The position numbers and the translations under genes were made by a program. A DNA stretch of 64,000 nucleotides from an uncultured Desulfobacterales bacterium (GTDB lineage Bacteria > Desulfobacterota > Desulfobacteria > Desulfobacterales > SpSt-501), in contig CALIUY010000030.1 in assembly GCA_938048455.1 (NCBI GenBank), positions 19,568 to 83,567 on the forward strand, written 5' to 3'. Below the pieces are notes generated by a model. That model was not told where the DNA came from. It did no database searches and worked only from the letters and a program-made list of their open reading frames with translations. This document shows, piece after piece, positions 10,702 to 30,985 of the stretch; the first letter of the stretch is position 1, and every line of letters starts with the position of its first letter.

Positions 10702-10705
10702 ATTC

Positions 10706-11599
10706 TTGGAAATCCATTGCAGTCCCCACGTCCTCGAGGAATTGCTGTCGCTTCTCGATCTCGAGCCGATCGAGGAAAACCTCTTCCGCGGCCAAAGCCA
10801 GGACCTGGGGTTGGGCAGCGTCTACGGCGGGCAGGTTCTCGGCCAGGCCCTCTCGGCGGCTTACCGCACGGTTCCCGAAGGTCGCCGCGCCCACAGCCTG
10901 CACGCCTACTTCCTGCGACCCGGGGATGTGCGGCGGCCGATCGTCTACCACGTGGACCGCATCCGCGACGGCAAGAGCTTTACCACGCGGCGGGTCGTGG
11001 CCGTGCAAAAAGGGGTGGCGATTCTCAACCTCTCCTCCTCCTTTCAGCTCGCGGAGACGGGCTTCGAACACCAGGATCCGATGCCCGAAGTCCCCGGGCC
11101 CGAGGGGCTGCCCTCGGAACTCGAGCTCGCCCGCGCGATCGCCGAACAGATCCCGCAGGGGTTGCGCGAAAAACTGCTCTGCCGGCGGCCGATCGAGGTC
11201 CGCCCCGTGAACCCCATGAACCCCTTCGCCCCCGAAAGGCGACCGCCGGTCCGCCACCATTGGATCCGGGCGATCGACCGACTGCCGGACGACCCCGCCG
11301 TACACCAGTATCTGCTCGCCTACGCCTCCGACTACGGACTGGTCGTCACTTCGCTCTACCCCCACGGGAAGAGCTTCTGGCAGCCGGCGATGCAGGTCGC
11401 CAGCCTCGATCATGCGATGTGGTTCCACCGGCCCTTCCGCATGGACGAGTGGCTCCTTTATACCATGGCCAGCCCGAACGCCTGCGGCGCCCGCGGCCTC
11501 GCCCACGGCCGGGTCTACGACCGCCGCGGCGCCCTCGTCGCCTCCGTGGCCCAGGAAGGGCTGATCCGTTTCCACGAGGCGGCGCCGACGCCGCGGTAG
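10706..11599 (+). CDS. tesB: Acyl-CoA thioesterase II
   Basis: TTG start 7 nt after GGGGAGG. Collinear with E. coli TesB from the N-terminus (LLSLLDLEPIEENLFRGQSQDLGLGSVYGGQVLGQAL...HSLHAYFLRPGD...PIVYHVDRIRDGKSFTTRRV.A.Q.G..I....SFQ). Confidence 0.9.
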   Translation: MEIHCSPHVLEELLSLLDLEPIEENLFRGQSQDLGLGSVYGGQVLGQALSAAYRTVPEGRRAHSLHAYFLRPGDVRRPIVYHVDRIRDGKSFTTRRVVAVQKGVAILNLSSSFQLAETGFEHQDPMPEVPGPEGLPSELELARAIAEQIPQGLREKLLCRRPIEVRPVNPMNPFAPERRPPVRHHWIRAIDRLPDDPAVHQYLLAYASDYGLVVTSLYPHGKSFWQPAMQVASLDHAMWFHRPFRMDEWLLYTMASPNACGARGLAHGRVYDRRGALVASVAQEGLIRFHEAAPTPR

Positions 11600-11678
11600 A
11601 GCGGCTTTCGCCCGCGCAGATGGATTCTGCACTCGGCCGCCGGTCACGAGCGCGCTCTGTTTCCTGAAGGCAGCGGTT

Positions 11679-16159: not shown

Positions 16160-17509
16160 GTGCCGAAGGCCGTCTTGCGTCATCTCACGCAGCGCAACCC
16201 CTGCATGGTCCGCGGGGAAGGGGTCTACCTCTTCGACGCCGAGGGCAAACGCTACCTCGACGGGGCAAGCGGCTCCTCGCTCGTCTGCAATCTCGGCCAC
16301 GGGGAGGCCGCGGTGGCCGAGGCGATCGCCCGCCAGGCGGGCACCCTGGCCTACAACCCCTTCCACTGCTCGCACTCCGAGGCCTACCTCGAGCTCGCCG
16401 AGAGGCTCGTGCGCATCGCCCCGCCCGGGTTCGGGAGGGTCTTCGCCGTGAGCTCGGGCTCCGAGGCCGTGGAGAACTGCCTCAAGTTCAGCCGCCAAGC
16501 GCATCTCGCCTGCGGGGAACCGGGCCGCCACCAGGTGATCGGCCGCTGGCAGTCCTACCACGGAAACACCCTGGGCGCGCTCGCCTGCGGCGGCCACACC
16601 GGCAGGCGAAGGAAACACTTGCCGCAACTTGCGGCTGGGGTGCATATCCCGCCCGCCTTTTGCTACCGCTGCCCCTTCGAAAAGACCCACCCCGCCTGCG
16701 GGCTTCTCTGCGCCCGGGCGCTCGAGACCGCCATCCGGCAGCTCGGAGCCGAAAACGTGGCCGCCTTCATCGCCGAGCCCGTGGTCGGGGCGGCGCTCGG
16801 CGCCGTGCCCGCCCCGCCGGGGTACTTCGAGCTCGTGCGCGTGATCTGCACGCGATACGGCGTGCACTTCATCGCCGACGAGGTAATGTGCGGCCTGGGG
16901 CGCACGGGACGGCCCTTCGCCATCGACCACTGGGAAGTCACGCCGGATCTGATCGCGACCGGCAAGGGCCTGGGGGCCGGCTATTTCCCCATGGCCGCTT
17001 GCCTGATCGCCGAGGCGCTCGCTGCGGACGTGGAGCGCCGCGGGGCCGCTTTCGAAGGAGTCCACACCTGCTGCGGCCATCTGCTCGGAAGCCGCGTGGG
17101 CTGCCTCATGCTCGAGCGGCTGGTGGAGAGAAGGCTTGCCGAAAACGCGGCCCGGCAGGGGGCGCGGCTGCTCGCGGGGCTCCAAGAGATCGCCCGGCGC
17201 CGGACCTCGATCGGTGATGTGCGCGGGCTGGGTTTGATGGCGGGGGTGGAGTTCGTGCGCGACCGGAAAACCCGGGAGCCTTATCCCCCCGGGCTTCGTT
17301 TCGCGGAGCGGGTGATGGATGCTTGCCTCGAACGCGGCCTCATCGTCTTTCCGGGCCACGGGACCGTCGAGGGGGTCGCCGGCGACCACCTGCTTCTCGG
17401 TCCGCCGCTCGTCATCGGGGAGCAAGAGGTGGACGAACTGCTATCGATCCTCGAGGAGGCGCTCGCCTTCGTGGAAGGCGACCCCGAGGTGGCCGCCTTC
17501 AGCCGATGA
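16160..17509 (+). CDS. Class III (omega-type) PLP-dependent aminotransferase
   Basis: GTG start after GAGGAGG, 4 nt downstream of the preceding stop. GSSLVCNLGHGE, SSGSEAVENCLKF, SYHGNTLGAL, FIAEPV.GA and ADEVMCGLGRTGRPFAIDHW..PDLI..GKGLG.G. Confidence 0.88.
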   Translation: MPKAVLRHLTQRNPCMVRGEGVYLFDAEGKRYLDGASGSSLVCNLGHGEAAVAEAIARQAGTLAYNPFHCSHSEAYLELAERLVRIAPPGFGRVFAVSSGSEAVENCLKFSRQAHLACGEPGRHQVIGRWQSYHGNTLGALACGGHTGRRRKHLPQLAAGVHIPPAFCYRCPFEKTHPACGLLCARALETAIRQLGAENVAAFIAEPVVGAALGAVPAPPGYFELVRVICTRYGVHFIADEVMCGLGRTGRPFAIDHWEVTPDLIATGKGLGAGYFPMAACLIAEALAADVERRGAAFEGVHTCCGHLLGSRVGCLMLERLVERRLAENAARQGARLLAGLQEIARRRTSIGDVRGLGLMAGVEFVRDRKTREPYPPGLRFAERVMDACLERGLIVFPGHGTVEGVAGDHLLLGPPLVIGEQEVDELLSILEEALAFVEGDPEVAAFSR

Positions 17510-17978
17510 AGGCGGCGGCGAAGACGCCGATCATGGCGAAGACGAGGCCCGCCTTGACGCCGAGCGCCACCACGAACCCCATCCACGCCGCGACCCCCGC
17601 CCGGCCTGCACGGGCCGGATCCCGGTGCGCGATGAACTCGCCCACAAGCGCACCCGCAAAGGGTCCGATCAGGATGCCCGGCAGGCCGAAGAAGAGGCCG
17701 ACGATCATCCCGAGCATGGCCCCGACCACGGCCGCACGGCCGGCCCCCGCGCGCTTCACGCCCCAGCCCGCGGCGAGAACGTCGATCAGCAAGGATGCCG
17801 CGGTCATCGCCGCCAGCACGAGAATCGTCCCCGTCCCCGCATGGCGGAAGCCGTCCGCCCAGGCGGCAAGCAGGAGCCCGCCGAAGACGAGCGGGGTCCC
17901 CGGAAGGCCCGGCACCACCACCCCCACGAGCCCCGCGGCGACCAGCAGCACCCCCAACGCCCACCCCAGAATCTCCAT
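17499..17978 (-). CDS. DUF456-family membrane protein
   Basis: ORF 17499..18158 trimmed to ATG 17978 (MEILGWALGVLLVAAGLVGVVVPGLPGTPLVFGGLLLAAW...). Gly-rich TM helices with a DUF456-like layout. The 3' end overlaps the convergent aminotransferase gene by 11 nt. Confidence 0.65.
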   Translation of the reverse strand: MEILGWALGVLLVAAGLVGVVVPGLPGTPLVFGGLLLAAWADGFRHAGTGTILVLAAMTAASLLIDVLAAGWGVKRAGAGRAAVVGAMLGMIVGLFFGLPGILIGPFAGALVGEFIAHRDPARAGRAGVAAWMGFVVALGVKAGLVFAMIGVFAAAFIG

Positions 17979-18066
17979 GTTCAGGGTATAGCCGATCCCG
18001 GGCCGCCTCGGCAACGGCGGCCGATGCTTTTCTTTCACCGGTGATTCCGCTAGGATCGAACGGATC

Positions 18067-19320
18067 ATGGAAGTGGGCCCTCGGAACGGCGCGAAGCAGA
18101 CGGGCACGAAGCCCGGAAGCACGGTCATCGGGCTGTGCCTGGCCGAAGTGCTCAGCATGACCGGCTTCGCCGCCTACCCGGTGTTCCTTGCCCCGCTCCG
18201 CGATCTCTGGGGCCTTTCGAGCTCCGAAGCGGGGCTGATCGGCGGGGCCTTCTTCGCCGGCTACATGACGGCCGTCTTCTTTCTTTCGGCCGCCACCGAC
18301 CGCATCGACGCCCGCCGGGTGCACCTCGGCTGCTGTCTTCTTTCCGCGGCAAGCCTCGCCGGCTTCGCCGCCCTCGCCTCGGGGCTGGCGAGCGCGGTCT
18401 TCTTCCAGCTCCTTGGCGGAGCGGGGCTCGCCGGCACCTACATGCCCGGTCTGAAGGCGCTCACCGACCGCGTGGGCGGACCGCGGCAGAGCCGCTACAT
18501 TTCCTTTTACACTTCGGCCTTCGGCATCGGCACGAGCCTGTCGCTGCTGCTCGCCGGGTGGCTCGGCCGCCTCCTTTCCTGGCCCGGCGTGTTCGCGCTC
18601 CTTGCCGTCGGCCCTCTGGCGGCGGCGGCGCTGGTGCGGGGAACCCTTGCTCCTTTCCCCCCTCCCGCGCCCGCCAGCGGCAAGCCTTCCCTCTTTCCCC
18701 GCCCCGCGGTGCTCCGCCTGCCCGGGGTTTCGGCCTTCTTGCTGCGCTATGCGGCGCACTGCTGGGAGCTCTTCGGCCTGCGCTCCTGGATGGTCGCCTT
18801 CCTCCTCTTCGGCTACAGCCTCGCCGCGGCCGCCCCTCCCGGGCTGGCGGCGACGGAGGCCGCGGCCCTGATCAACCTTCTGGGAATTCCCGCGAGCATC
18901 CTCGGCAACGAGACGGCGATGCGCGTGGGGCGAGGCCGCTTCATCCCGATCGCCATGGCCGCATCCGGTCTGCTTTCCTGGGGCGCCGGATTTTCGACCG
19001 TCCTCTCCGCCGGGGCCATGCTCGCGGTGCTGGCGCTCTACTACATCGCCGTGATGTCCGAATCCGCCGCCTTGACGGCGGGTCTAATCGAGGCGACCCC
19101 CGCCCACGTCCGGGGGGCGGTCATGGCCTTTTATTCCTTCGCCGGTTTCGGGGCCGGTTTTCTCGCCCCGGTCGCCTTCGGCGCGGTTCTCGATGCGGCC
19201 GGAGGGAAGGGGGCGCCGCTGGCCTGGGGGCTTGCCTTCGGCAGCCTCGGCGCGGGCTGCCTGCTGAGCGCCCTGGCCGCAATGGGCCGCCGCCGGCCAC
19301 GGCAAAAGCCGCCGTCTTGA
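18067..19320 (+). CDS. MFS transporter
   Basis: 417 aa with about 12 hydrophobic segments. MFS-like loop motifs (GGAFFAGYM, TDRIDARRV). Divergent from the DUF456 gene. Confidence 0.8.
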   Translation: MEVGPRNGAKQTGTKPGSTVIGLCLAEVLSMTGFAAYPVFLAPLRDLWGLSSSEAGLIGGAFFAGYMTAVFFLSAATDRIDARRVHLGCCLLSAASLAGFAALASGLASAVFFQLLGGAGLAGTYMPGLKALTDRVGGPRQSRYISFYTSAFGIGTSLSLLLAGWLGRLLSWPGVFALLAVGPLAAAALVRGTLAPFPPPAPASGKPSLFPRPAVLRLPGVSAFLLRYAAHCWELFGLRSWMVAFLLFGYSLAAAAPPGLAATEAAALINLLGIPASILGNETAMRVGRGRFIPIAMAASGLLSWGAGFSTVLSAGAMLAVLALYYIAVMSESAALTAGLIEATPAHVRGAVMAFYSFAGFGAGFLAPVAFGAVLDAAGGKGAPLAWGLAFGSLGAGCLLSALAAMGRRRPRQKPPS

Positions 19321-19382: not shown

Positions 19383-20214
19383 GTGAACCTGCGCAAAATC
19401 ACCTCGCTTACCGCGCTCACCTCCTTTGTTCTGCTGCTGATCACAAGCCTTGTGGTCTAACATCGCCCCCCAGGGGCGGGTCGCCTATTGGGCCGACTGG
19501 CGGCTCTGGGGGCTCTCGAAGACCGTGTGGGGGAACCTGCACATCACCGGCGGGACGCTTTTTCTTCTGAGCATCTTCCTGCACGTCTACTACAACTGGA
19601 GCGCGATCCTCGCCTACCTGAAAAAGAACCGCCGCCGCCGCATCCTCACTGCCGAGTTCGGCTTCGCCCTCGCCCTGACCGCCGTCACCATTCTGGGAAC
19701 CGGGGCCGAGGTGCCCCCGTTCCGCTGGCTGATCGATCTCAACGAGGCCCTCAAAGACCGGGCGGCCCGCATTCACGGCGAGCCGCCCTACGGGCATGCC
19801 GAGCTTTCGCCGCTCGCCTCCTTCCTCGCCAAGGCGAACCTCGACGAGACGAAGGCCCGCGTGCTCCTGCGCGAGGCGGGTGTCGCGTTCGAGGAGAAGG
19901 AAACCCTTCTCGAGATCGCCCGCAAAAACCGGATCTCCCCCCAGGCCGTCTACCGGATCGTGCAGCCGGCCGAAAAAAGGCCCGCGGCGGGAGCCGCGGA
20001 CCTGCCCCCCCTGCCTCCCCCCGGCACCGGCCAGCAGACGATCGCCGAGCCCTGCCGGCGCTACGGCCTGGAGGTCGAACGGGGGATCGCCTTGCTCTCC
20101 GCCCGCGGCCTCCAAGCCCGCCCCGAGGAAACCCTGAAGGCGACCCCCGGCGCGAACGGCATGACGCCCGATGCGCTCTACGATCTGCTGTGCGAAATCG
20201 CCGCCGCCCGCTGA
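19383..20214 (+). pseudogene. DUF4405-type membrane protein gene interrupted by a one-base frameshift (or an assembly error)
   Basis: GTG 19383 lies 7 nt after AAGGAGA. It encodes VNLRKITSLTALTSFVLLLITSLVV and then TAA at 19458. The +1 frame continues NIAPQGRVAYWADWRLWGLSKTVWGNLHITGGTLFLLSIFLHVYYNW... to 20214. Deleting one A of GTCTAACATC restores LVVYIAPQGRVAYW, the usual DUF4405 N-terminal pattern. Confidence 0.65.
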
Positions 20215-20333
20215 AGGAGGCGGCGGCGGATGGCCGAAAACGGCCTTGAAAGGGCGTGCGATTTCTGTTACTCAAGCCGGCCGCGCCTCCCCCAAGCCTT
20301 TGGCGAAAACCTAGCGACCGGCGGAAGGAGTGC

Positions 20334-21182
20334 ATGGAAAACGAAGCCTGGACCCGCGAGCGGCTCGATCGGCTCGCGGCCGAATTCCGTTTCGTCGTGA
20401 CCGACGCCATCTGTCGCTCCGGCGTGGGACACCTCGGCGGGGTGATGAGTCTCGTCGAGATCGTGATCACCCTGTACTTCCGCATTCTGAACCTGCGGCC
20501 CGAGGAGCCCGACTGGCCGGACCGCGACCGGCTGATCCTCTCCAAGGGGCACGCCGGGCCGATCGTCTACACCGCACTCGCCTATAAGGGCTTCTTCCCC
20601 AAATCCTGGCTTTGCACGATCAACCGCAACGGCACCCGGCTTCCCAGCCACATGGACCAGATCCTCACCCCCGGGGTCGAGATGACGGCCGGATCGCTGG
20701 GGCAGGGCCTCTCCTGCGCATGCGGCATGGCCCTTGCCGCCAAACGCGACGGCAAAAGGCACCGTGTTTACTGCATCATCGGCGACGGCGAGAGCAACGA
20801 GGGCCAGATCTGGGAGGCCGCCCTATTCGCCGCCCACCAGCGCCTCGACAACCTGATCGCCATCTGCGACTACAACAAGATGCAGATCGACGGCCGCACC
20901 GCCGAGGTGCTCGAGCTCGAGCCGCTCGCCGACAAGTGGCGCGCCTTCGGCTGGGAGACCTTCGAGATGGACGGCCACGACTGGGACGACATCCACGCGA
21001 CCCTGCTCCGGGCACGCGAGGTCACCGGGCGGCCGGCGATGATCATCGCCCACACGGTCAAGGGCAAGGGGAACCGCGAAACCGAAGGCCTGGTCGATTG
21101 CCACAACGTGAAAATCCCCGACGAGGCGACTTACCGCCGTCTGATGGAAGGACTCGAGTGCCGCTTCGAGCTGCCCTACTGA
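20334..21182 (+). CDS. Transketolase, N-terminal (TPP-binding) subunit
   Basis: ORF trimmed to ATG 20334 after GGAAGGAG. GHLGG..S..E, DR.ILSKGHA.P..Y, GSLGQGLS.A.G.A and CIIGDGESNEGQIWEAA.FA....LDNLIAI.DYN. Confidence 0.9.
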   Translation: MENEAWTRERLDRLAAEFRFVVTDAICRSGVGHLGGVMSLVEIVITLYFRILNLRPEEPDWPDRDRLILSKGHAGPIVYTALAYKGFFPKSWLCTINRNGTRLPSHMDQILTPGVEMTAGSLGQGLSCACGMALAAKRDGKRHRVYCIIGDGESNEGQIWEAALFAAHQRLDNLIAICDYNKMQIDGRTAEVLELEPLADKWRAFGWETFEMDGHDWDDIHATLLRAREVTGRPAMIIAHTVKGKGNRETEGLVDCHNVKIPDEATYRRLMEGLECRFELPY

Positions 21183-21228: not shown

Positions 21229-22194
21229 ATGACGCCGCCCGCCGCACCGAACTTCGCCGACATGGAAATGCGTCTCGTTTACGCGCACACGCTGAGCGAG
21301 CTGATCGCGCGCAACCCCGACGTCTACTGTCTCGAGGCCGACCTCGGCAAGGCCGACGCCTCGATCCCGATCGTCTCCACGCGTCACCCCGCGAACTTCA
21401 TCAACTGCGGGGTCCAGGAGGCGAACATGATCGGGGTCGCCGCAGGGCTGGCGCGTGAGGGGAAGATCCCCTTCTGCTCGAGCTTCACCGCCTTCGCCAC
21501 CCGGCGTTGTTACGACCAGATCACGATCAGCGTGGCCTACGCCAACAACAACGTGAAGATCGTCGGCACCTCCCCCGGCATCACCCAGGGTCCGAACGGC
21601 GGGACCCACATGTGCTTCCAGGATCTCGCGATCATGCGGGCGATGCCCAACATGCACGTCTACAGCCCCGCGGACGCCCACGAGCTGCGCGCGGTTCTGT
21701 TCCACATGGCCGCGACCCGCCAGCCGACCTACCTGCAGCTGATCCGGCTCAAGGTGCCGCCGCTTTTCCCCGAAGACGTCGCCTTCGACCCGCAGCGCGC
21801 CCGCCGCCTGCACGAGGGAGACGATGTGACCCTGGTGGCGACGGGCTACATGACCCGCTTCGCCCTCGATGCCGCCCGCGGCCTTGCCGCCGAGGGGATC
21901 GGCGTCGAGGTGCTCCATTACCCGTCGATCAAGCCCTTCGACCGGGAAAGCCTTCTCGCCTCGGCCCGCCGGACGGGGGCGGTCGTCACCGTCGAAAACC
22001 AGAGCATCCTGGGGGGACTGGGCGGCGCGGTGTGCGAGATCCTGAGCGAGCACCACCCCGTGCGCGTGCGCCGTCTCGGCGTTCCCGACCGCTTCGGGGA
22101 GGTGGCCGACCCGGACTACCTCTTCGAGAAACACGGCTTCGGCCCCCGGCACATCGCCCAGGCCTGCCGCGACCTCGCCCGCCGCCGCAACTGA
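21229..22194 (+). CDS. Transketolase, C-terminal (pyrimidine-binding) subunit
   Basis: FINCGVQEANMIGVAAGLA.EGKIPF.SSFTAF...R.YDQI, GP.GGTHM..QDLAIMRA.PNM, and a C-terminal domain VENQSILGGLGGAV. Paired with 20334..21182. Confidence 0.9.
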   Translation: MTPPAAPNFADMEMRLVYAHTLSELIARNPDVYCLEADLGKADASIPIVSTRHPANFINCGVQEANMIGVAAGLAREGKIPFCSSFTAFATRRCYDQITISVAYANNNVKIVGTSPGITQGPNGGTHMCFQDLAIMRAMPNMHVYSPADAHELRAVLFHMAATRQPTYLQLIRLKVPPLFPEDVAFDPQRARRLHEGDDVTLVATGYMTRFALDAARGLAAEGIGVEVLHYPSIKPFDRESLLASARRTGAVVTVENQSILGGLGGAVCEILSEHHPVRVRRLGVPDRFGEVADPDYLFEKHGFGPRHIAQACRDLARRRN

Positions 22195-22205: not shown

Positions 22206-23492
22206 TCAGGCCGGGCTCGGGCAGGATTCCGGTTCCAGATCCTTCTTCGCCGCCACGGCCTTTGCATCCCAGAGGCGAACCAGCTCGTCTTTCTGCGCCT
22301 CGAAGAGCAGCGCTTGCTCCTCGACCAGGGCCTCGGCCTCCTCGGAGGAGAGGTTCCCGCTTTCGCGCACGAAGGAGGCGACGCGCGCGAAGTAGAGCGG
22401 GGTGAGCATGTCGAGGAGTTTGCCGCGGTTCACGCTCCAGGAGCGGAAGGTGGCGGCGATCTCGTAGAGAATCCGCACCCAGGCCTCGGTCGGCAGGTGG
22501 AAGTCCTGCACCGTGCGGCAGGCGGCGGCGGTGATCTGCTGGAAGCTCTCCGGATCGAAGACCTCCCGCCAGAGGGGGGAAAACTGCTGGTAGCCGGTCT
22601 TGAAGAGATCCACGAGGAGATCGAGGTTCACCTTGACCGGCTCGGGCTCGATCGAGCCCGCGAAGCCGAAGGTCGGGACCGGCTCGCTGCCGCGCACGCT
22701 CCGCCAGTGGCTTTCGTAGCGTTCCATCAGCGAAAAGAGCGCCGAGAGCACCTGTCGGAACATGGGGCCCAGATGCTGGCCGGGGTCCTTCACGTCGTGG
22801 ATCTTCACCCCGAGGTTCGACTGGCAGATGCGGAAGCCCTGGGTGACCGCGGTCGTCGTCATCCAGATGTCGATCCCGAAGCGCGCGACATCGGTCAACC
22901 ACACGTCCTGGTCGATGTAGAACCGCGCCACCTCGCGCGAGATGGCGAAATCCCCGCCGATCGGCTGTCGGATACGCTTGCCGTAGAGCGCCCGGGTGAG
23001 GTTGTAGACGATGTTGTTCGTGATCGTCCCGTCGTACTTGTGCCGGAGGTAGACCGGGGCGACGAACTGGAATCCGCCCTCGAGCACCGGGTCGATCAGG
23101 TATTTTACCCAGTCGGGGGTGATGCTGCGCAGATCCGAATCCACCATGGCGCAGACTTGGACGTTGAGGCGGCAGGCGGCCTCGAACACCGAGCGCAGGG
23201 CGGTCCCCTTGCCCGCCGGCCCGCGGTAGATGGAGACGATCTTCTCCTGCCAGGGCTTGAGCTGGAATTCCTTGGCCGCCTCACGGGTATCGTCGGTTGA
23301 GCCGCCGTCGGCCACGAAGACGACGCTGCGCCGGCTCCCGTAATGGCGGGCGAGCCCGTGGCTCACCATCTGAATCACGTGGGCGATGGTCGCCTCGTTG
23401 TTGTAGCAGGGGATCCCGACCAGAATGTCGGCGGAGTCGATCTCCTCGATCCGTTTTGCCGTGTAGCCGCGCAGCGCGGTGTCGTAGTGCAT
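22206..23492 (-). CDS. GT-A fold glycosyltransferase, mannosyl/glucosylglycerate-synthase-like, with a helical C-terminal domain
   Basis: ILVGIPCYNNEATI, VADGGSTDDT, GPAGKGTAL and DxD motif MVDSDLRSITPDW, then RHKYDGTITNN, IRQPIGGDF and FGIDIWMTT. By my recollection the order and spacing resemble Rhodothermus MGS (PGKGDGM / DADITSFGPDW / QPLGGE / WGID). Last gene of the 27192..22206 operon. Confidence 0.7.
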   Translation of the reverse strand: MHYDTALRGYTAKRIEEIDSADILVGIPCYNNEATIAHVIQMVSHGLARHYGSRRSVVFVADGGSTDDTREAAKEFQLKPWQEKIVSIYRGPAGKGTALRSVFEAACRLNVQVCAMVDSDLRSITPDWVKYLIDPVLEGGFQFVAPVYLRHKYDGTITNNIVYNLTRALYGKRIRQPIGGDFAISREVARFYIDQDVWLTDVARFGIDIWMTTTAVTQGFRICQSNLGVKIHDVKDPGQHLGPMFRQVLSALFSLMERYESHWRSVRGSEPVPTFGFAGSIEPEPVKVNLDLLVDLFKTGYQQFSPLWREVFDPESFQQITAAACRTVQDFHLPTEAWVRILYEIAATFRSWSVNRGKLLDMLTPLYFARVASFVRESGNLSSEEAEALVEEQALLFEAQKDELVRLWDAKAVAAKKDLEPESCPSPA

Positions 23493-23537
23493 CGCATCCT
23501 TCCTTTCTCTGCCAACATCGCCGGCCCCCGGCCGCGC

Positions 23538-24602
23538 TCAGCCTCCCCCGGAGGCGTTTCCGAAACGCTTGGGACAGATGCGGCAAACCGGGTCGGGGTC
23601 ACCCGCCGCCAGGCGCTCCCGGAAGCGGCGAAAGCTCTCTTTTTCCCAGATCGCCACCGGTTCCTCCGCCGGGATCTTCCCGAAGACGAGCCGCCGCTCC
23701 GCGAGGGCGTCGGCCGGGATGTTGCGGTAGACGCAGGGCGAGAGCGTCCCGTCGGCAGCCACAAACACGGTCCGGTCGACCCGCTCGCGGCAGGGAGCGC
23801 TGCGGATCTCGCAGACGGGAAGCGCATAGTCGAAGGCGAGCCCGCGGGCGCGGGCCGACGCCGCCGCCCGGGAGAGGACATCGGCCGCGCGGGCGATTTT
23901 CTCCTCCTCCCCTGGCCGGATCGCCTCCGCGGCAAGCGAGGCGTCGGGGAGAAAATCCAGGGTGGAGACAACGGCCGCATGCACGCCGAGCCGTTCCATG
24001 AGGGCGGGGAGCCCCGCCACGGAATCGAGCGCGGAGTAGAGCAGAAGATAGGCGAAATGGATCTCCAGATGCACGGCCTGCCTTTTTCTACGCTCCGCCT
24101 GCAGGGTTTCCACCGCCGCGAGCACCCGCTCGAAGTCGACCCCGCAGCGCGCGGCCTCGTGAGCCGCGGCGTCGCTTCCGGCAAGCGAAAAGGCGACGAC
24201 ATCGATGCCGCTTTCGACGATCCGGCGGGCCAAGTTCCCGTCCAGGTGCAAGCCGCAGGTCGTGGTCGACACCTGGCAGCCCGCGCGGCGTGCGAGCGCA
24301 GCGAAGGTGAAGAACTCCGGGTGCAAGAGCGGCTCTCCCCAGCCCTGCAGGTGCACGCGCTGGCTTCGGCGCAGAAGCGGCCAGAGGCGTCCGAAGGTCT
24401 CGCGGTCGAGATCGCCTCCCCGCCAGGCGTCCCGGAGCACGGTGCGGGGGCAATAGCGGCAGCGGCCGGGGCAACGGGAAGTCACCTCGACCTGGACGCA
24501 GGCGAGCGGCCGCCGGAACCCCAGGAGCGCCTCCTTCAAGGTCTCCCCTAAACCGGGCGCCGCAAAGCGGTCGAGAAAGGGATCGCCGCCCTTGGGTTTC
24601 AT
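23538..24602 (-). CDS. Radical SAM enzyme with SPASM/twitch-like C-terminal Cys motifs
   Basis: CxxxCxxC cluster VEVTSRCPGRCRYCP and GWGEPLL. The C-terminus has C-x13-G-x4-C (CRERVDRTVFVAADGTLSPC) plus CRIC. The start overlaps the upstream stop (ATGA at 24599..24602). Confidence 0.85.
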   Translation of the reverse strand: MKPKGGDPFLDRFAAPGLGETLKEALLGFRRPLACVQVEVTSRCPGRCRYCPRTVLRDAWRGGDLDRETFGRLWPLLRRSQRVHLQGWGEPLLHPEFFTFAALARRAGCQVSTTTCGLHLDGNLARRIVESGIDVVAFSLAGSDAAAHEAARCGVDFERVLAAVETLQAERRKRQAVHLEIHFAYLLLYSALDSVAGLPALMERLGVHAAVVSTLDFLPDASLAAEAIRPGEEEKIARAADVLSRAAASARARGLAFDYALPVCEIRSAPCRERVDRTVFVAADGTLSPCVYRNIPADALAERRLVFGKIPAEEPVAIWEKESFRRFRERLAAGDPDPVCRICPKRFGNASGGG

Positions 24603-25456
24603 CGCCGCCTCCCGAGACGCTCGCGGAGGAAGCGCCCGAGGCCCGAGGGCCGGGGGCTCAAGACCCAGCTCGTTTCCACACAGGGCAGGAAGGGTTTAGC
24701 GCCCCATTTGCGCTTGAAAAACGAGACCCCTTCGTTCACCGCGAGCCCGAGGTTCACCTGCGCATGCCCCCGGCGTTCCGCCTCGGCGATGAGGCCGGCG
24801 AGAGCGAAATCGGCGCTTCCCGGCGGGGCAAGCTCCGGATTGCGGAAACTGAAGAGGAAAAAGGCGGTCGTGAGCGCCGAAAACTCGCCCACGGCGAAGG
24901 CGGCGAGCCGCCCGTCGGAAAGACGCGCGGAAAAGAGGCGGGCCTCGGCGCAGGCGGCGAGCACTTGCGGGATGCGCTCGAAAATGAGCCGTGTTCCCTC
25001 CGCGAACGCGCGTTCCCGCAGATAGCGGCCGATCAGTTCCCGGTGTTCGCGACCCAAGAAGTCCCCTTCTTCCCGGTAGAGCTCGCGGGCCGCGCGCCGC
25101 AACAGGTGGCGCAGCTTCGCGCCCCGGGGCGGCGCCGGGAGCGGAAGCGCGAAGTAGACATCCTCGCGGCTTTCCGCCGACGGCGGGGCTTGCCGCGGCC
25201 GCGCGGGCCCCAGGACGGTGATCCGGGTGACTCCCGGCACGGAAAGCGCCTCTCCCACCGCCTGGGACATGCGGTCTTCGTCCCGCGGGTCCTCGAGCGG
25301 ATAGCCGACCAGGACGATCCTCTCCCGGCTGCGGTAACCCACGCAGGAGCCGAAAAGTGCGGGGACGGCCCCGGTGACGGCCCGCACGTAGGCGACCACC
25401 TGTTCGGGGACGACCGCCCCGGCCGAAACCCGCTCGAGCCGATCCGGGCCGATCAT
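24599..25456 (-). CDS. FemAB / Acetyltransf_6-like GNAT-fold protein (stand-alone paralog)
   Basis: In-frame tail of ORF 24599..27256 starting at ATG 25456 (MIGPDRLERV...). Ends with the FemAB/GNAT-type segment FLFSFRNPELAPPGSADFALAGLIAEAERRGHAQVNLGLAVNEGVSFFKRKWGAKP. Collinear with residues 1-300 of the upstream gene. ATGA overlaps at both ends. Confidence 0.65.
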   Translation of the reverse strand: MIGPDRLERVSAGAVVPEQVVAYVRAVTGAVPALFGSCVGYRSRERIVLVGYPLEDPRDEDRMSQAVGEALSVPGVTRITVLGPARPRQAPPSAESREDVYFALPLPAPPRGAKLRHLLRRAARELYREEGDFLGREHRELIGRYLRERAFAEGTRLIFERIPQVLAACAEARLFSARLSDGRLAAFAVGEFSALTTAFFLFSFRNPELAPPGSADFALAGLIAEAERRGHAQVNLGLAVNEGVSFFKRKWGAKPFLPCVETSWVLSPRPSGLGRFLRERLGRRR

Positions 25457-27192
25457 CGCCTTCTCCGCACGCGGAAGCCCGCCTCGGCCAGCATCCCCCG
25501 CAGCCCGATCAGATGGGCGGAGCCTACGAAGACGGCGCCTCCTCCCTGCAGGAGGTAGGGCCGCATGCGCTCGAGAAAACGGGCGTCGCGGCGGTGGATC
25601 ACAAGCTCGGTACGGGTCGGAAACTCGATGCTCGTCCCGAAGAGACGCTCCGGCTCGCCCTGGAGGTAAAACCGCTCGTAGCGGCGCATCATCCGGCCCC
25701 AGCGGCGGCAGCCGCGAAGAAAGTTCACGATGCGGGCCAGCGGGATCCCCTCCAGGGTCTCGATCTGTTCCTCGAGGGTCTCCAGGGCGATCACGGTTTT
25801 GCCCATCTCCCGGGCGATCCGCCAGGCCTCGAGATCGACCGACTCCTTCCAGCCCCGGCGGGCGACAAACGCGGCCCACAGCGAGAAAAAGGCATACCAC
25901 GGTCGGGTCCCGGTGAGCAGTCCGCGCACGTCGGGCGGATCGGGGTGTTCGAAACCGAAAAACCGCGCCCACCTTCCCCGGGGGCCGCAGACCACCCGCT
26001 CGAGCCGTGCGATCTCCTCCTCCGCCAGGAGCGTCGCCAACCGCGGCCCCCCGGCGGGAGGTGTCCGGCCGATCCGGGCCACGGCTTCCAGGCTCTTCGG
26101 GTCGAGCGGGCCCTCGAAGAGGACCGTCTCCACCTCTTCGAAGAGCCGGCGGAAGGAGCGCTCGAAGCGGAAGCCGAAAAAATGCGCCGTCCCCCCGAGG
26201 AAAGAGCGCCGTCCCTCGCGCTCGACCTCCCAGAGCATCGCGTAGCGCCGCTCCCGCGGCAAGCTGGCGAGAAACTCGTGCCGGGAAACGGGCTCCCGCG
26301 GAAGCCGGGCCAGGACGCGCGCCAGATCGTTCACCTCCGCCCGCCAGCCTTCGCCCTCCCGCCAGGAGGCCATCTCGTAATCCGGACCGGGTGCGGCCCC
26401 CCATTTCTCCTTGAAACGGCGGATCCCGTCGTTCACGCCCAGTCCGAGATGCAAATGGTCCTTTCCTTCGCGCCGTGCGGCGCGGATCATCTCCCGAAAG
26501 AGAAGATCGGTCGCATACGGGGTGTAGGGCGCCCGGGAATGGGCGCCGAGGAGGTAGCTCGTGAAGCGCCGTGGAGCGCGGTCGATCAGCAGGCAGGCCG
26601 CGATGCGCCCCTCGGCGTCGCGGGCGCTGAGCAACGCAAGCCCCGGCGTCCGCCCCAAGAGCCCGGGGGTACGGGCATAGAGCTCGCGCACCCGCGGCGG
26701 AAGAGCGACCCGGCTCAGAAACTCGGCCCAGAGGCGGCGGTGGGCGGCGTCGAACGTGACCGTCTCCTCGACCGCCAGCCGTGCCTCCGCCCGTTCGGCT
26801 GCCCGTTCGAGCCGCGGCGGGATCCGCGCCGCGAGGGAAAGCACATAATAGCGGTCCGACTCCACGCGCCGGTCGGCCAGCCGCGACGGAAGCCGCGGGG
26901 CAATGGCCCAACAGTCCCGGGCGTGCGTGCGCCGCAGGGCCTCGGCGAGGGCTTCCTCGAAATCTTTTTCCGCGTCTTCTTCTCCCAGGGGGTAGCCCAC
27001 GGCGATCAGCCAGTCTTCGCGGGCGTAAAAAAGAAAGTCTCCGCACGCGAAGGGCTCCCCTCCCGAGACGGCCGCCATGAAAGGGACCGAATGCTCGGGA
27101 ACCCGGGCCCGTTCGAGGGCGGCGGTCACCTCCCGGGGCGACAAGGAAAAGGATTCCGCTTCGGCGGCTGCGGTCGATCTCGTGCCGTTCAT
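25453..27192 (-). CDS. Fusion protein: N-terminal FemAB/Acetyltransf_6-like domain plus C-terminal TraB/GumN (PrgY/Tiki-like) domain
   Basis: ORF 25453..27231 trimmed to ATG 27192. The N-half ends with SYLLGAHSRAPYTPYATDLLFREMIRAARREGKDHLHLGLGVNDGIRRFKEKWGAAP. The C-half (about 25456..26244) has TraB/GumN marks MLWEVEREGRRSFLGGTAHFF (GTxH) and VFVGSAHLIGLRGML (GxxH). Confidence 0.7.
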   Translation of the reverse strand: MNGTRSTAAAEAESFSLSPREVTAALERARVPEHSVPFMAAVSGGEPFACGDFLFYAREDWLIAVGYPLGEEDAEKDFEEALAEALRRTHARDCWAIAPRLPSRLADRRVESDRYYVLSLAARIPPRLERAAERAEARLAVEETVTFDAAHRRLWAEFLSRVALPPRVRELYARTPGLLGRTPGLALLSARDAEGRIAACLLIDRAPRRFTSYLLGAHSRAPYTPYATDLLFREMIRAARREGKDHLHLGLGVNDGIRRFKEKWGAAPGPDYEMASWREGEGWRAEVNDLARVLARLPREPVSRHEFLASLPRERRYAMLWEVEREGRRSFLGGTAHFFGFRFERSFRRLFEEVETVLFEGPLDPKSLEAVARIGRTPPAGGPRLATLLAEEEIARLERVVCGPRGRWARFFGFEHPDPPDVRGLLTGTRPWYAFFSLWAAFVARRGWKESVDLEAWRIAREMGKTVIALETLEEQIETLEGIPLARIVNFLRGCRRWGRMMRRYERFYLQGEPERLFGTSIEFPTRTELVIHRRDARFLERMRPYLLQGGGAVFVGSAHLIGLRGMLAEAGFRVRRRR

Positions 27193-27413: not shown

Positions 27414-27953
27414 ATGAAACGAGGCGTCGACTGGAGGCCTTATGTCGCCGGCGCCCTGGTCGGGGTGCTGGCGACCGTATCCGTCGTGGTCACGACCCGG
27501 GTGCTGGGAAAAACCCAGTTCCTGGGGGCCTCGACCACCTTCGTGCGCGCCGCGGGGTTCGTGGAACAGGCGGTCGATCCCGAACACGTGCGGCAGAACC
27601 CTTATTTCGCCAAGGAAAAAATACGGATCGACTGGCAGTTCATGCTGATCGCCGGCATTTTCATCGGCGCGCTCGCCGCCTCCATCCTGGACGGGAGCTT
27701 TCGCCTCGAGGCGGTGCCGCCGATCTGGCGCGAGCGCTTCGGGGACAGCGTGGCGCTGCGCGCCGTGGGTGCTTTCTTGGGCGGGATCGTCGCCATGTTC
27801 GGCGCGCGGCTGGCCGACGGCTGCCCGAGCGGCCACGGGCTGAGCGGACTGATGCAGCTCTCGGTCAGCGGCTTCATCGCGCTCGCCTGCTTCTTCGGCG
27901 CCGGGGTCCTCATGGCCGCCTGGGTCTACGGCGGGAAAGGAGGCCGCAGATGA
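27414..27953 (+). CDS. YeeE/YedE-family (sulfur-compound transport) membrane protein, first half-size subunit
   Basis: CAGGAGGG RBS. Polytopic 179 aa protein with the characteristic DGCPSGHGLSG motif. Confidence 0.8.
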   Translation: MKRGVDWRPYVAGALVGVLATVSVVVTTRVLGKTQFLGASTTFVRAAGFVEQAVDPEHVRQNPYFAKEKIRIDWQFMLIAGIFIGALAASILDGSFRLEAVPPIWRERFGDSVALRAVGAFLGGIVAMFGARLADGCPSGHGLSGLMQLSVSGFIALACFFGAGVLMAAWVYGGKGGRR

Positions 27954-28477
27954 GCGAACAGTGGCTGGGTCTGATCACGGGGATCCTGTTCGGAGCCCTG
28001 CTCCAGCAGGGTCGGGTCTTGCGCTTCGAAAAGCAGGTGGCGGCCATGCGCTTGGAGGATATGACCATCCTCAAGTTCATGATGTCCGCCATTCTCGTCG
28101 GGATGATCGGGATCCAGGCCGCCGTGGATCTCAAGCTCGCGGCCCTCAACCCCAAGGCCACCCAACTCGGAGCGAACCTTTTGGGCGGGATCCTCTTCGG
28201 CCTGGGCTGGGCGGTGATGGGCTTCTGCCCGGGGACCTCGGTCGGCGCGGTGGCCGAGGGCCGCTGGCATGCGATCTTCGCCATCCTGGGGATGATGACC
28301 GGAGCGGCCCTTTACGCCGAAGCCTACCCGCGGCTGGAAAAAACGCTTCTGGCCTGGGGGAATCTCGGCAAGATCACCTTGCCGGGGGTGCTCGGCCTCT
28401 CCCCCTGGGTCGTCATCCCGGCGCTGGCCGCCGTGTTTTTGCTGTGTTTTGTTTTCTTCGAGAAAAAGGGGCTCTGA
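27950..28477 (+). CDS. YeeE/YedE-family membrane protein, second half-size subunit
   Basis: ATG 27950 overlaps the upstream TGA (ATGA) and has GGAAAGGAGG upstream. MSEQWLGLITGILFGALLQQGR... with GFCPGTSVGA motif. Confidence 0.8.
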   Translation: MSEQWLGLITGILFGALLQQGRVLRFEKQVAAMRLEDMTILKFMMSAILVGMIGIQAAVDLKLAALNPKATQLGANLLGGILFGLGWAVMGFCPGTSVGAVAEGRWHAIFAILGMMTGAALYAEAYPRLEKTLLAWGNLGKITLPGVLGLSPWVVIPALAAVFLLCFVFFEKKGL

Positions 28478-28480
28478 GCG

Positions 28481-29614
28481 ATGACGACGCATCTCCGGGA
28501 AGCCCTCGGACGCCGCAAAACGGAGCTCGATACCCCCTGCCTCGTGATCGATCTCGACCGCCTGGATGAGAACCTGCAGAAAATGCAGAGCCGGGTCAAG
28601 GCGGCGGGCAAGGCGCTGCGACCGCACGCCAAGACCCACAAGTGCTCGATGATCGCCAAGATGCAGATCGCCAACGGCGCGATCGGCGTCTGCGCGGCCA
28701 AGATCGCCGAGGCCGAGGCCCTGGTCGAGGCCGGAATCTCGGGGATCCTCCTCACCGGACCCGTGGCTGGCCGCACCAAGACCGACCGGCTGGTCGCGTT
28801 GCTCGAGCGCGCCCCCTTTCTGATCGCCGTCGTCGACGACGCGGCGGGGGTAGAGCTTCTGGAATCGCGCCTGGCGGAGGCGGGGTGCCGCCTCGATGTG
28901 CTGCTCGATCTGGATGTCGGCCAGCACCGCACGGGAGTGCCCCCGGCGCGCGCCGCCGCGCTGGCGCAGAAGATCCTCGCAAGCCCCCACCTGCGGCTGC
29001 GCGGCCTACAGGCCTACGCCGGCCACCTGCAGCACATCCCCCGCTACGCGGACCGCAAGCTCGCCTCCCGGGAGGCCTTGCGGCAGGCGGCGGCCGTATT
29101 CCGCGAGCTTCAGGCGCGGACGCCCTCCTGCGACATCCTGAGCGGCGCCGGCACGGGCACCGCGCGCATCGATCTCGCGGTGCCCGAGCTGACCGAGCTC
29201 CAGGCCGGATCCTATGCCCTCATGGACGCCGAGTACCTTGCCGTGGAGTCGGCCGACGGCTCGGAGGAACCCGACTACGCCCCGGCCCTCACCCTGCTCA
29301 CCACGGTCGTGAGCGGCCCCCACGGCCGGCAGGTCACCGTGGACGCGGGGCTCAAGGCGATCTACCGCGACGGCGGAAGGCCGCGGGTGATCCACCCGGA
29401 CTACGGTCGCCTGCAGTACGAATGGTTCGGCGACGAATACGGAAGACTCGTCGCCCCGGACCGCGCTTGCCTGCTTCCCGCTCCCGGATCGGTACTCGAA
29501 CTCATCGTCTCGCACTGCGACCCGACGGTGAATCTCTTCGATCACTTCGTGGTGACGCGGGCCGAGCGGGTGATCGACGTCTGGCCGATCGACCTGCGCG
29601 GCCGCTGCCAATAA
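28481..29614 (+). CDS. DSD1-family PLP enzyme (D-threonine aldolase / D-serine dehydratase-like, alanine racemase N-terminal fold)
   Basis: DTPCLVIDLDRLDENL, PLP-lysine motif LRPHAKTHKC, GVCAAKI.EAE, H.G.P, LRGLQAY.GH and SHCDPTVN. Confidence 0.8.
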   Translation: MTTHLREALGRRKTELDTPCLVIDLDRLDENLQKMQSRVKAAGKALRPHAKTHKCSMIAKMQIANGAIGVCAAKIAEAEALVEAGISGILLTGPVAGRTKTDRLVALLERAPFLIAVVDDAAGVELLESRLAEAGCRLDVLLDLDVGQHRTGVPPARAAALAQKILASPHLRLRGLQAYAGHLQHIPRYADRKLASREALRQAAAVFRELQARTPSCDILSGAGTGTARIDLAVPELTELQAGSYALMDAEYLAVESADGSEEPDYAPALTLLTTVVSGPHGRQVTVDAGLKAIYRDGGRPRVIHPDYGRLQYEWFGDEYGRLVAPDRACLLPAPGSVLELIVSHCDPTVNLFDHFVVTRAERVIDVWPIDLRGRCQ

Positions 29615-29625
29615 GGGGGGCGGCC

Positions 29626-30492
29626 TTGAGGAGCTGGCGGAAGCTGTTCGGCGGCCGCAAGCCCGTGATCGCCTGCATCCATCTGCCTGCCCTTCCCGGA
29701 TCCCCGCGCTACGCGGGAAAAATCGACCGCGTCTACGAGGCGGCCCTGGAGGAGACGGAGATCTATCGCCGGGCCGGCGTGGACGGCCTGCTGGTCGAGA
29801 ATTTCCGCGACATGCCCTTCTTTCCGGACCGCGTCCCCGCCGAAACCGTCGCCGCCATGGCCGCGGTGACGCGCGAGGTGGTCCGAGCCTCGGGCCTCCC
29901 GGTCGGGGTGAACGTCCTGCGAAACGACGCCGCAGCCGCCCTGGCGGCGGCCACCGCGGCGGCCGCGCACTTCATCCGCGTGAACGTCCACCTGGGCGCC
30001 GCGGTCGGCGACCCGGGCATCCTCGAGGGCCGGGCTCACGAGACGCTGCGCCGTCGGTCCTTCCTGGAATCTCCGGTCCTGATCTTCGCCGATCTGCGCG
30101 TCAAGCACGCCGTCCCCCTCGTCGTGCGGGATCTCGCCACGGAAGCGCGCGAGCTCGAAGAGCGGGGGCTGGCCGACGCGTTGATCGTCACCGGCCGGCG
30201 CACCGGAGAGGCCGCGGACCCGGCGGCGCTGCTGACCGTGCGGGCGAGCTGCCGGCTTCCGATTCTCGTCGGCAGCGGGCTCACCCCGGAAAACCTCGCG
30301 CACTTTCATGCCCAAGCCCAGGGCTTCATCGTGGGAAGCTTCTTCAAAAAGGGGGGGCGGGCCGAACATCGCGTCGAAGAAGGGCGGGTACGGGCTTTCC
30401 TGCAGCGCCGGGCCGAACTCGAGGGCCGATCGTCCCCGGAGGCGGGAGCCGCTTTCAGCCGAGGTCGGGTTCGATCTGCAGCGTGTCGTTGA
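29626..30492 (+). CDS. BtpA/SgcQ-family protein
   Basis: TTG start in the frame of ORF 28642..30492. PVIACIHLPALPGSPRY, GVDGLLVENF.D.PF, VGVNVLRND, IRVNVH.GA, ADALIVTG..TG and ILVGSGLTPEN. The 3' end overlaps the convergent gene by 38 nt. Confidence 0.75.
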   Translation: MRSWRKLFGGRKPVIACIHLPALPGSPRYAGKIDRVYEAALEETEIYRRAGVDGLLVENFRDMPFFPDRVPAETVAAMAAVTREVVRASGLPVGVNVLRNDAAAALAAATAAAAHFIRVNVHLGAAVGDPGILEGRAHETLRRRSFLESPVLIFADLRVKHAVPLVVRDLATEARELEERGLADALIVTGRRTGEAADPAALLTVRASCRLPILVGSGLTPENLAHFHAQAQGFIVGSFFKKGGRAEHRVEEGRVRAFLQRRAELEGRSSPEAGAAFSRGRVRSAACR

Positions 30493-30985
30493 AGCGGTTG
30501 ACGAGATTGGCCAGGCCGATCACGAGAACGAGTTCCACGATTTCCGCTTCGTCGTAGTATTTCCCCATCCAGTCGAGCACGGAGGCGTCGACGGCCGCCG
30601 CCCCGCGCGTGACGAGATCGGCGAAGCGGATGGTCGCCCGCTCCTTTTCGTCGTAGGCCGGACTGATCTGGTAAAAACGAAGGTCCTCGATCTGCCGCTC
30701 GCTCACCCCCGCCTGCCGGGCGGAGGCGGTGTGCGCCTGGATACAGTAGCGGCAGGCGTTGATGCTCGCCGCCTTGAGGTAGGCAAGCTCCTTCAGACGC
30801 GCCGGCACCTTGCCCTGGGTCATGACCGCCGTGTAAAAGGGGATGAAGGTTTTCAGCGCGGCCGGGAAATGCGCCATGACGCCGAAGATGTTGGGCATCT
30901 TGCCGATCGCGGCGTGCAGGTCGCGGTAGAGGCCTTCGAGCCCCGCATCCGCTTGCTGAAGCGTCAACGGTTGGGGAATGCCCAT
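30455..30985 (-). CDS. Carboxymuconolactone decarboxylase / AhpD-like family protein
   Basis: GGAGGAG RBS. PNIFGVMAHFPAALK, LKELAYLKAASINACRYCIQAH (CxxC) and VIGLANLVNRFN. Confidence 0.8.
   Translation of the reverse strand: MGIPQPLTLQQADAGLEGLYRDLHAAIGKMPNIFGVMAHFPAALKTFIPFYTAVMTQGKVPARLKELAYLKAASINACRYCIQAHTASARQAGVSERQIEDLRFYQISPAYDEKERATIRFADLVTRGAAAVDASVLDWMGKYYDEAEIVELVLVIGLANLVNRFNDTLQIEPDLG

Follow-up and report, generated by a model that had tools for sequence, protein, structure and literature searches.

The closest described counterparts of the locus reported here are spread over several systems. Hydrolases encoded in operons with homologs of the aminoacyl-phosphatidylglycerol synthases (aaPGS) are a recurrent design, in which AhyD, PesT, and the periplasmic VirJ each represent an unrelated type of hydrolase (PMC6103681). 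In FemX and in the DhpH C-domain (DhpH-C) the catalytic lysine follows an aromatic residue, F304-K305 and F328-K329, respectively (PMC12945691), and the TIKI/Ere enzymes use a catalytic set of 2His/2Glu plus Arg for the hydrolysis of peptide or ester bonds (PMC6254334). A pair of an aminoacylation enzyme and a hydrolase exists in ascamycin biosynthesis as well. We compared these systems with a locus in a 64,000-nucleotide (nt) stretch of DNA, referred to as the window, from an uncultured Desulfobacterales bacterium (SpSt-501; contig CALIUY010000030.1 of assembly GCA_938048455.1; GC content about 67%). At 22206..27192 its minus strand carries four co-directional open reading frames (ORFs) in the order P1-P2-P3-GT, encoding a tandem-GNAT protein of the FemX/MprF fold with a C-terminal TraB/TIKI hydrolase (P1), a stand-alone paralog of the P1 N-domain (P2), a radical SAM enzyme (P3), and a GT-A family-2 glycosyltransferase (GT). 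The original prediction, made from the letters of the window, had taken the four genes for one system. The real unit turned out to be a conserved three-protein module, P1-P2-P3, whose proteins work together. Its parts belong to known superfamilies, and what is new is their combination.

P1 (25453..27192, minus strand) has 579 aa counted from its ATG; a TTG start at 27144 is also possible, since the orthologs are mostly 563 aa long and align from residue 17. It is followed on the same strand by P2 (24599..25456; 285 aa), P3 (23538..24602; 354 aa), and GT (22206..23492; 428 aa). The start of P2 lies on the stop of P1 in an ATGA overlap at 25456..25453, that of P3 lies on the stop of P2 in another at 24602..24599, and 45 nt separate the P3 stop (TGA, 23540..23538) from the ATG of GT (23492). 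The ORF list and our reading of the sequence thus reproduced exactly the four minus-strand genes, the overlaps, and the gap that the original prediction had proposed, together with the co-orientation and coupling of the genes, and all four of its domain assignments were upheld. Overlaps of stop and start codons are an ordinary feature of operons. What goes beyond chance is not these overlaps but the order P1-P2-P3, which is kept across phyla. All four proteins are soluble and lack transmembrane segments, and P1, P2, and P3 are net basic. Rfam gave no match anywhere in the window, no riboswitch or RNA element was found upstream, and promoter and terminator scans stayed at chance level.

We then determined how far this arrangement is kept in relatives. 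When one genome per species was scanned, 168 relatives were obtained, from which the best 80 loci were retained (L004 to L083); with three loci from metagenome contigs, 83 loci were compared by tblastn of the window proteins followed by a check at the ORF level. ORFs picked greedily in high-GC loci gave shadow ORFs, and these were left out of the conclusions. P1 was found in all 80 genome loci recovered. In 69 of the 83 loci P2 directly adjoined P1 on the same strand, and in 53 P3 adjoined P2; where P3 was absent, the operon stopped after P2, and in several loci from Firmicutes and of the Desulfonatronospira type P1 was alone or faced a divergent P2-like gene. Since it occurs alone in some lineages, P1 is the core of the module, to which P2 and then P3 have been added in most lineages. 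An all-against-all clustering of the 4244 ORFs of the 83 loci gave, besides P1 to P3, no gene family present in more than 14 loci. Small ORFs (20 to 100 aa) within 1.2 kb of the module turned out to be clade specific or shadow ORFs only, and an adjacent gene for a precursor or scaffold peptide, as in a cluster for ribosomally synthesized and post-translationally modified peptides, was rejected when the clustering of these small ORFs found none conserved.

The genes of the module are also found fused to one another. In 10 loci, mostly from Mailhella-type Desulfovibrionaceae, P1 and P2 form a single ORF of about 890 to 925 aa with the architecture transferase-hydrolase-transferase (L062, L066, L070, L072, L074, L079, L080, and L082, most at about 10001-12660, and L002 and L048), and the database proteins P0242 (890 aa) and P0290 (910 aa) are P1::P2 fusions as well. 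Those in L002 and L048, which are long-read metagenome-assembled genomes (MAGs) with broken genes, may be frameshift artifacts. P2 and P3 are joined in one uninterrupted ORF of 630 to 631 aa at L027:11689-13581, L029:4915-6807, and L041:11719-13608; the same architecture, a GNAT-like part plus a radical SAM part, recurs in P0248 (615 aa) and P0252 (633 aa). The linkers of L027 and L029 differ from that of L041, and therefore the P2::P3 fusion possibly arose more than once. The two kinds of fusion argue that P1, P2, and P3 act together, and they probably do so as a complex.

P1 had 598 database homologs (E ≤ 1e-5), mostly of the 563-aa length and with uninformative names; identity was 59 to 90% among the 120 matches listed, and the mean column identity of the P1 alignment (A1) was 75%. 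The P3 family, with 819 matches (E ≤ 1e-10) bearing generic names only, is of the same size order and lies on the same contigs. That of the P1 N-domain and P2 is small and isolated, comprising 317 representative clusters (E ≤ 1e-3) among 1.84 billion. Identity between phyla ranged between 50 and 60%. The module occurs in Desulfobacterales, Syntrophobacteraceae, Desulfarculaceae, Desulfurivibrio, and alkaliphilic genera of the Desulfonatronum type, in gut Desulfovibrionaceae (Desulfovibrio piger ATCC 29098, Bilophila wadsworthia ATCC 49260, and Mailhella), and in Nitrospirota and some Bacillota, e.g., Desulfitispora alkaliphila. Its carriers are mainly sulfate- or sulfite-reducing anaerobes, among them species of the human gut; within Desulfovibrio the occurrence is patchy. 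The window is closest to Desulfatibacillum-like MAGs (L051 and L004). Our literature searches found no paper describing the module, the sole trace of it being a remark in a 2013 comparison that COG3735/TraB genes are specific to host-associated Desulfovibrio (PMC3608642). A plasmid-borne or mobile module was rejected, as a tblastn search of P1 against 72,556 plasmids gave no match, and so was a defense system, PADLOC having returned only a generic similarity to viperin-like radical SAM proteins. The combination of P1, P2, and P3 fits no curated family, defense-system model, plasmid record, or RNA family. With no NCBIfam match for P1 or P2, scores of P3 far below the cut-offs, no match among PDB sequences, and nothing in the literature, the proposal that this is not a described pathway stands.

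The transferase-like parts were recognized chiefly by their fold. In Pfam, P1 matched PF13480 Acetyltransf_6 (E 1.8e-6) and P2 matched LPG_synthase_C only, below threshold (E 8e-5; 22.3 bits against a cut-off of 27.5); no FemAB family of Pfam or NCBIfam matched either protein, which leaves both outside the curated families of the FemABX/MprF transferases. BLASTP showed that P2 and the P1 N-domain are paralogs (31% identity over 254 aa, E 8e-25). We modeled P1 with AlphaFold2 (pLDDT 78.5 overall and 80 to 94 in most of the N-domain) and compared the model with the PDB by Foldseek. The N-domain (about residues 17 to 290; 26323..27144, minus strand) has in this model the double (tandem) GNAT fold of the FemABX/MprF transferases, P2 being its paralog. 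Its best matches were the MprF-type L-PGS/A-PGS structures 4v36 and 4v34 (E 5e-11 to 3e-10), FemX (1xe4, E 3.6e-10), and Sba18/Sbb17 (9wqy and 9wqx, E 3e-9 to 3e-8), which are peptide synthases dependent on aminoacyl-tRNA. The top matches had a probability of 1.00, at an identity of only 12 to 19% in the structural alignments. Ranks 1 to 25 were taken by aaPGS, FemX, and Sba18/Sbb17 chains and the uncharacterized Bacteroides protein 2hqy, with VipF at rank 26. This predicted likeness to aaPGS, FemX, and Sba18 agrees with the earlier suggestion that the FemAB-like domains are akin to aminoacyl-tRNA-dependent transferases, and it makes the P1 N-domain a candidate for such an enzyme.

Conserved residues may point in the same direction. 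Among 18 diverse orthologs, the P1 N-domain has the invariant motifs VPEHS, HRRLWAEF, and LGLGVN.GIRRFK.KWG, the last with F260-K261. The invariants of P2 are K114, H138, D216, G-L-G, and F247-K248. Both paralogs share one set of invariant residues, which includes a Phe-Lys pair set in the motif LGLG..G..FK.KWG and lying toward the C-terminal end of GNAT domain 2, a position like that of K305 in FemX and K329 in DhpH-C. Judged by motif position, F260-K261 of P1 and F247-K248 of P2 are where FemX and DhpH-C would lead one to expect them; the correspondence is suggestive only. The module shares the double-GNAT fold with FemX and Sba18, P2 at about 285 aa is like Sba18 in length, and the two paralogs side by side, the P1 N-domain and P2, recall FemA and FemB. 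In contrast to the FemX/Sba18 enzymes, the module has no peptidoglycan or antibiotic-cluster context, and its transferase-like domain is fused to a hydrolase or, elsewhere, to a radical SAM enzyme.

In most orthologs, P2 ends in a basic amphipathic tail (window 24599-24665; alignment A4), such as GLGRFLRERLGRRR, KKGWLARLLGR, or KKSLFARLFGA, with a median hydrophobic moment of 0.54. The tail resembles the MinD-type membrane-targeting helix and is a weak hint of membrane or nucleic-acid binding.

The C-domain of P1 (residues 319 to 577; 25462..26238, minus strand) is a full-length member of the TraB/PrgY/GumN family within the TIKI superfamily, to which Tiki, RRSP, EreA/B/C, and ChaN also belong. 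It matched PF01963 TraB_PrgY_gumN over the full model (positions 1 to 263 of 263) at E 2.5e-31 and 109.9 bits, well above the gathering score of 26.8, and the model of the domain had a pLDDT of 87. Four residues, H337 (in GTAH), E360, R535, and H560 (in GSAH), were invariant in the 18 diverse P1 orthologs. They correspond to the catalytic His/Glu and basic residues described for the superfamily: each His stands in a GxxH motif, the Glu follows the first His by 23 residues, and the Arg precedes the second by 25; the assignment of the second Glu is uncertain. Whereas PrgY and TraB are membrane or extracellular proteins of pheromone control, the P1 C-domain is cytoplasmic and fused to a transferase. 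Inside the TraB domain lies an invariant aromatic/hydrophobic helix, RPW(Y/M)AFFSLW (P1 residues 430 to 448; window about 25849-25905), which may cover the substrate as a lid or lie at a membrane interface.

P3 contains the Pfam domains Radical_SAM and SPASM (the latter at 37.2 bits). In 30 orthologs, the radical SAM motif CX3CX2C (C44/C48/C51) was invariant and four further cysteines were conserved in the C-terminal part, C271-x18-C290-x49-C340-x2-C343; the seven-Cys SPASM motif for two auxiliary clusters was absent from the same orthologs. Since only these four C-terminal cysteines are conserved, P3 is best regarded as a twitch-like enzyme with one auxiliary cluster rather than a full SPASM protein, so that of the predicted SPASM/twitch C-terminus the auxiliary-cluster character and the twitch alternative were retained and full SPASM was dropped. 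P3 shares CX3CX2C and a C-terminal Fe-S domain with the twitch/SPASM enzymes BtrN, TIGR04317 (a tungsten-enzyme maturase), and TIGR04311, and its C-x18-C...C-x2-C pattern resembles that of the BtrN auxiliary cluster. It differs from the SPASM enzymes in having a single auxiliary-cluster motif and in serving a GNAT-like protein as a dedicated partner, to which it is at times fused. The nearest NCBIfam models were TIGR04311 (E 1.2e-34; 120.1 bits against a cut-off of 400) and TIGR04317 (E 1.2e-30; 106.9 bits against 380); P3 scored far below the cut-off of every NCBIfam family and so belongs to none of the named ones.

The fold and the conserved residues suggest, as the most likely reading, though a tentative one, that the module carries out aminoacyl-tRNA-dependent acylation of a non-ribosomal acceptor, together with a radical tailoring reaction and a hydrolysis that frees or turns over the product. 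P1 and/or P2 would take the aminoacyl group from aminoacyl-tRNA by means of the Phe-Lys motif and pass it to a membrane-associated acceptor, such as a lipid or a lipid-linked precursor, or to a small molecule or peptide encoded elsewhere. P3 would tailor the donor or the product by radical chemistry, and the TIKI-type domain would release, recycle, or limit the product through hydrolysis of an ester or amide bond. Such a scheme would parallel the synthase and hydrolase pairs of the aminoacyl-lipid systems. The MprF-type aaPGS domain (DUF2156/LPG_synthase_C) is the best structural match of the P1 N-domain and the family weakly matched by P2, and the pairing of a transferase with a hydrolase is common to the module and the aaPGS systems. 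The module differs from MprF in having no membrane or flippase domain and from the aaPGS systems in its radical SAM enzyme and its additional paralog of the transferase; its hydrolase, unlike those of the aaPGS systems, is of the TIKI/TraB type, fused, and cytoplasmic, and the sequence similarity to aaPGS is not significant.

Several observations weigh against this reading. The known aminoacyl-lipid synthases have membrane domains and their hydrolases are periplasmic, whereas P1 to P3 are without a transmembrane segment, and in the 83 loci no conserved precursor ORF or acceptor gene adjoins the module. Dependence on tRNA is suggested by the predicted fold only: the Phe-Lys match to FemX and DhpH-C is one of motif position and not a residue-level structural superposition, the P1 profile gave no match to PDB sequences at E ≤ 1, and the P2 profile gave none that was significant, its best aaPGS match being at E 0.41. 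Tandem GNATs that use acyl-CoA, N-myristoyltransferase (NMT) and VipF, also matched the P1 N-domain in Foldseek, at E of about 1e-6 to 1e-7. The fold search with the TraB domain returned no informative solved relative (the best match was to a subunit of Tetrahymena complex IV, E 9e-3; EreC was at E 1.8), and the amphipathic signal of the P2 tail is weak, falling within the top 12% or so of internal windows. Finally, GT lies only 45 nt downstream in this genome, so that co-transcription and a local functional link are possible.

The same parts could instead serve the maturation of a peptide or protein, an explanation we regard as possible and rather unlikely. P3 would modify the substrate, the TIKI domain would trim it as an endopeptidase, and the FemX-like proteins would extend the new terminus or a side chain by one or two amino acids taken from aminoacyl-tRNA, in an N-degron-like or PEARL-like scaffold logic. 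The characterized TIKI members Tiki and RRSP are indeed site-specific endopeptidases, FemX-type enzymes make peptide bonds, and an identity of 50 to 60% across phyla suits a conserved macromolecular substrate; however, the 83 loci showed neither a conserved small ORF nor a gene for a candidate substrate beside the module, and many genomes have P1 without P3. The two NCBIfam models nearest to P3, TIGR04311 and TIGR04317, are putative metalloenzyme maturases, but P3 scores far under their cut-offs (120 against 400 and 107 against 380), and its single auxiliary cluster is like that of small-molecule twitch enzymes such as BtrN.

Less probable still is an acyl donor other than aminoacyl-tRNA, such as acyl-CoA, for the GNAT-like domains. 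P1 would then couple acyl transfer to deacylation, and P2 and P3 would either modify an RNA or carry out radical chemistry on an acyl group held by the GNAT domain. An analogy is offered by Elp3, in which a radical SAM domain is joined to an acetyltransferase domain. P1 matches PF13480 Acetyltransf_6, VipF, NMT, and the clavulanate tandem GNAT are significant Foldseek matches, the P2::P3 fusions have a GNAT plus radical SAM architecture, and the proteins are net basic. Yet the first GNAT using acyl-CoA, VipF, appears only at Foldseek rank 26, the sole Pfam hint for P2 is LPG_synthase_C, and the invariant Phe-Lys is the signature of FemX and DhpH; the domain order is also the reverse of that in Elp3, to which there is no sequence similarity.

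GT was assessed separately. It scored 46 against a cut-off of 23.3 for Glycos_transf_2 (PF00535) in Pfam and remained below threshold for MGS_GT (PF21969; 25 against 27 bits) and outside the curated GpgS family (NF010496; E 9e-22, 77.5 bits against a cut-off of 262). Among PDB sequences it matched GpgS (4y6n, E 1e-10) and MGS (2bo4, E 5.5e-5). It thus shares the GT-A fold with GpgS, MGS, and glucosylglycerate synthase, the last a name that the Joint Genome Institute (JGI) has given to some members of its family, and differs from them in falling below the curated cut-offs and in an extra C-terminal region of about 170 aa. The GT family has at least 8000 matches, with at least 75% identity among the 120 matches listed, in unrelated gene contexts. 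Only 8 of the 83 loci, all of them close relatives, have GT no more than 10 kb from P1. It directly follows P3 on the same strand, at 45 to 60 nt, in the window and in L004, L005, and L051, three loci that are 82 to 90% identical to the window; in L006 to L008, L014, and L017 it lies 0.75 to 7.4 kb from P3 with genes inserted, and in L044 it is missing, P1 to P3 and the transketolase genes being present. The P3-GT spacer contains a Shine-Dalgarno sequence, GAAAGGAAGGA, which lies 5 to 15 nt before the start of GT and is kept in the relatives. An apparent P3::GT fusion in L005 was an artifact, the tblastn alignment having run through a stop; the TGA is seen in both the translation and the DNA alignment.

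Because of its occurrence in 8 of 83 loci, its far larger family, and its unrelated contexts, GT is a lineage-specific neighbor outside the module: a separate, widespread enzyme of the glucosyl-(phospho)glycerate-synthase type that stands behind the module only in this lineage, where it is probably co-transcribed with it. Synteny across genomes, proposed beforehand as the test of the four-gene system, was passed by P1-P2-P3 and failed by the quartet, with GT adjacent in three relatives; the interpretation as a whole holds for P1, P2, and P3 and fails for GT. Given the comparative genomics, a four-gene pathway in which GT would give the sugar acceptor, and which would make or process a modified compatible solute or a glycoside bearing an aminoacyl or peptidyl group, is very unlikely: for it speak the place of GT right behind P3 on the same strand in the window and three near relatives, the existence of Orf11/Sba18, which is like FemX and aminoacylates an amino sugar, and an auxiliary-Cys spacing of P3 that recalls BtrN, which acts on an aminocyclitol, but about 75 of the 83 loci are without GT, inserted genes part it from P3 in five others, L044 has lost it with its flanks kept, its family counts at least 8000 matches in unrelated neighborhoods against hundreds for P1 to P3, it has a conserved ribosome-binding site of its own, and the L005 fusion was not real. 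Since the unit is P1-P2-P3, a pursuit of such a glycoside pathway would be misdirected.

Other genes near the module were recorded as well. The flanks, named beforehand as transketolase and YeeE, were identified as split versions of both. The transketolase consists of an N-terminal thiamine pyrophosphate-binding gene and a gene for the pyrimidine-binding and C-terminal parts (20256-21182 and 21229-22194, plus strand), which converge on GT with 11 nt between the stop codons. The YeeE/YedE-type (Sulf_transp) transporter is encoded by two half-size genes (27414-27953 and 27950-28477, plus strand), divergent from P1 and followed by an Ala_racemase_N/D-ser_dehydrat protein (28481-29614, plus strand); this arrangement of split YeeE and a D-Ser-dehydratase-like gene adjoins P1 in 9 to 13 Desulfobacterales loci and not beyond. 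A BtpA-family TIM-barrel protein (29674-30492, plus strand), a carboxymuconolactone-decarboxylase-family (AhpD-like) protein (30455-30985, minus strand), a DUF456 membrane protein (17499-18158, minus strand), and a DUF4405 protein (19450-20214, plus strand) lie nearby and are not conserved with the module. Downstream of P3 in some relatives is a conserved protein of about 57 aa (MKFSDFFIPKIARSDPKVRE...RQVAKQRL; L006:5253-5519, L007:14274-14537, L008:5993-6166, and L044:14121-14294), which sits between P3 and GT where GT exists; the window has none there. NF038143 (HYxxLL) proteins occur near P1 at L037:13426-14028 and 16816-17484, L040:12648-13211, L001:1656-2234 and 5079-5654, and 9437-9874 in both L009 and L015. 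In L037 and L040 they stand beside a second, TIGR04317-like radical SAM gene that is 37% identical to P3. HYxxLL proteins as substrates of the TIGR04317-like radical SAM genes were considered and set aside: their position is variable, they associate with PF03601 transporters, whose genes they follow in L001, and the window has none.

Non-ribosomal aminoacyl-tRNA-dependent transferases are few, and each of the known types, those of cell-wall cross-bridges, of MprF-mediated resistance to antimicrobial peptides, and of antibiotic biosynthesis, opened a field. The family described here has such a fold, is compact and strongly conserved, always bears a TIKI hydrolase, and usually takes on a dedicated radical SAM enzyme, and it has no curated model, structure, or literature. 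Since the carriers of the module include cultured, genetically tractable, or medically relevant anaerobes, such as D. piger ATCC 29098 and B. wadsworthia ATCC 49260, its function is directly testable. It is conceivable, though doubtful, that the module represents a novel type of aminoacyl-tRNA-dependent machine, with an aminoacyl group or carrier adduct held by the FemX/MprF-fold protein, altered by the radical SAM enzyme, and freed by the built-in TIKI hydrolase. If so, the product would be a new modified amino acid, aminoacyl-lipid, cofactor, or protein modification typical of anaerobes that reduce sulfate and sulfite, among them the gut bacteria Bilophila wadsworthia, Desulfovibrio piger, and Mailhella.

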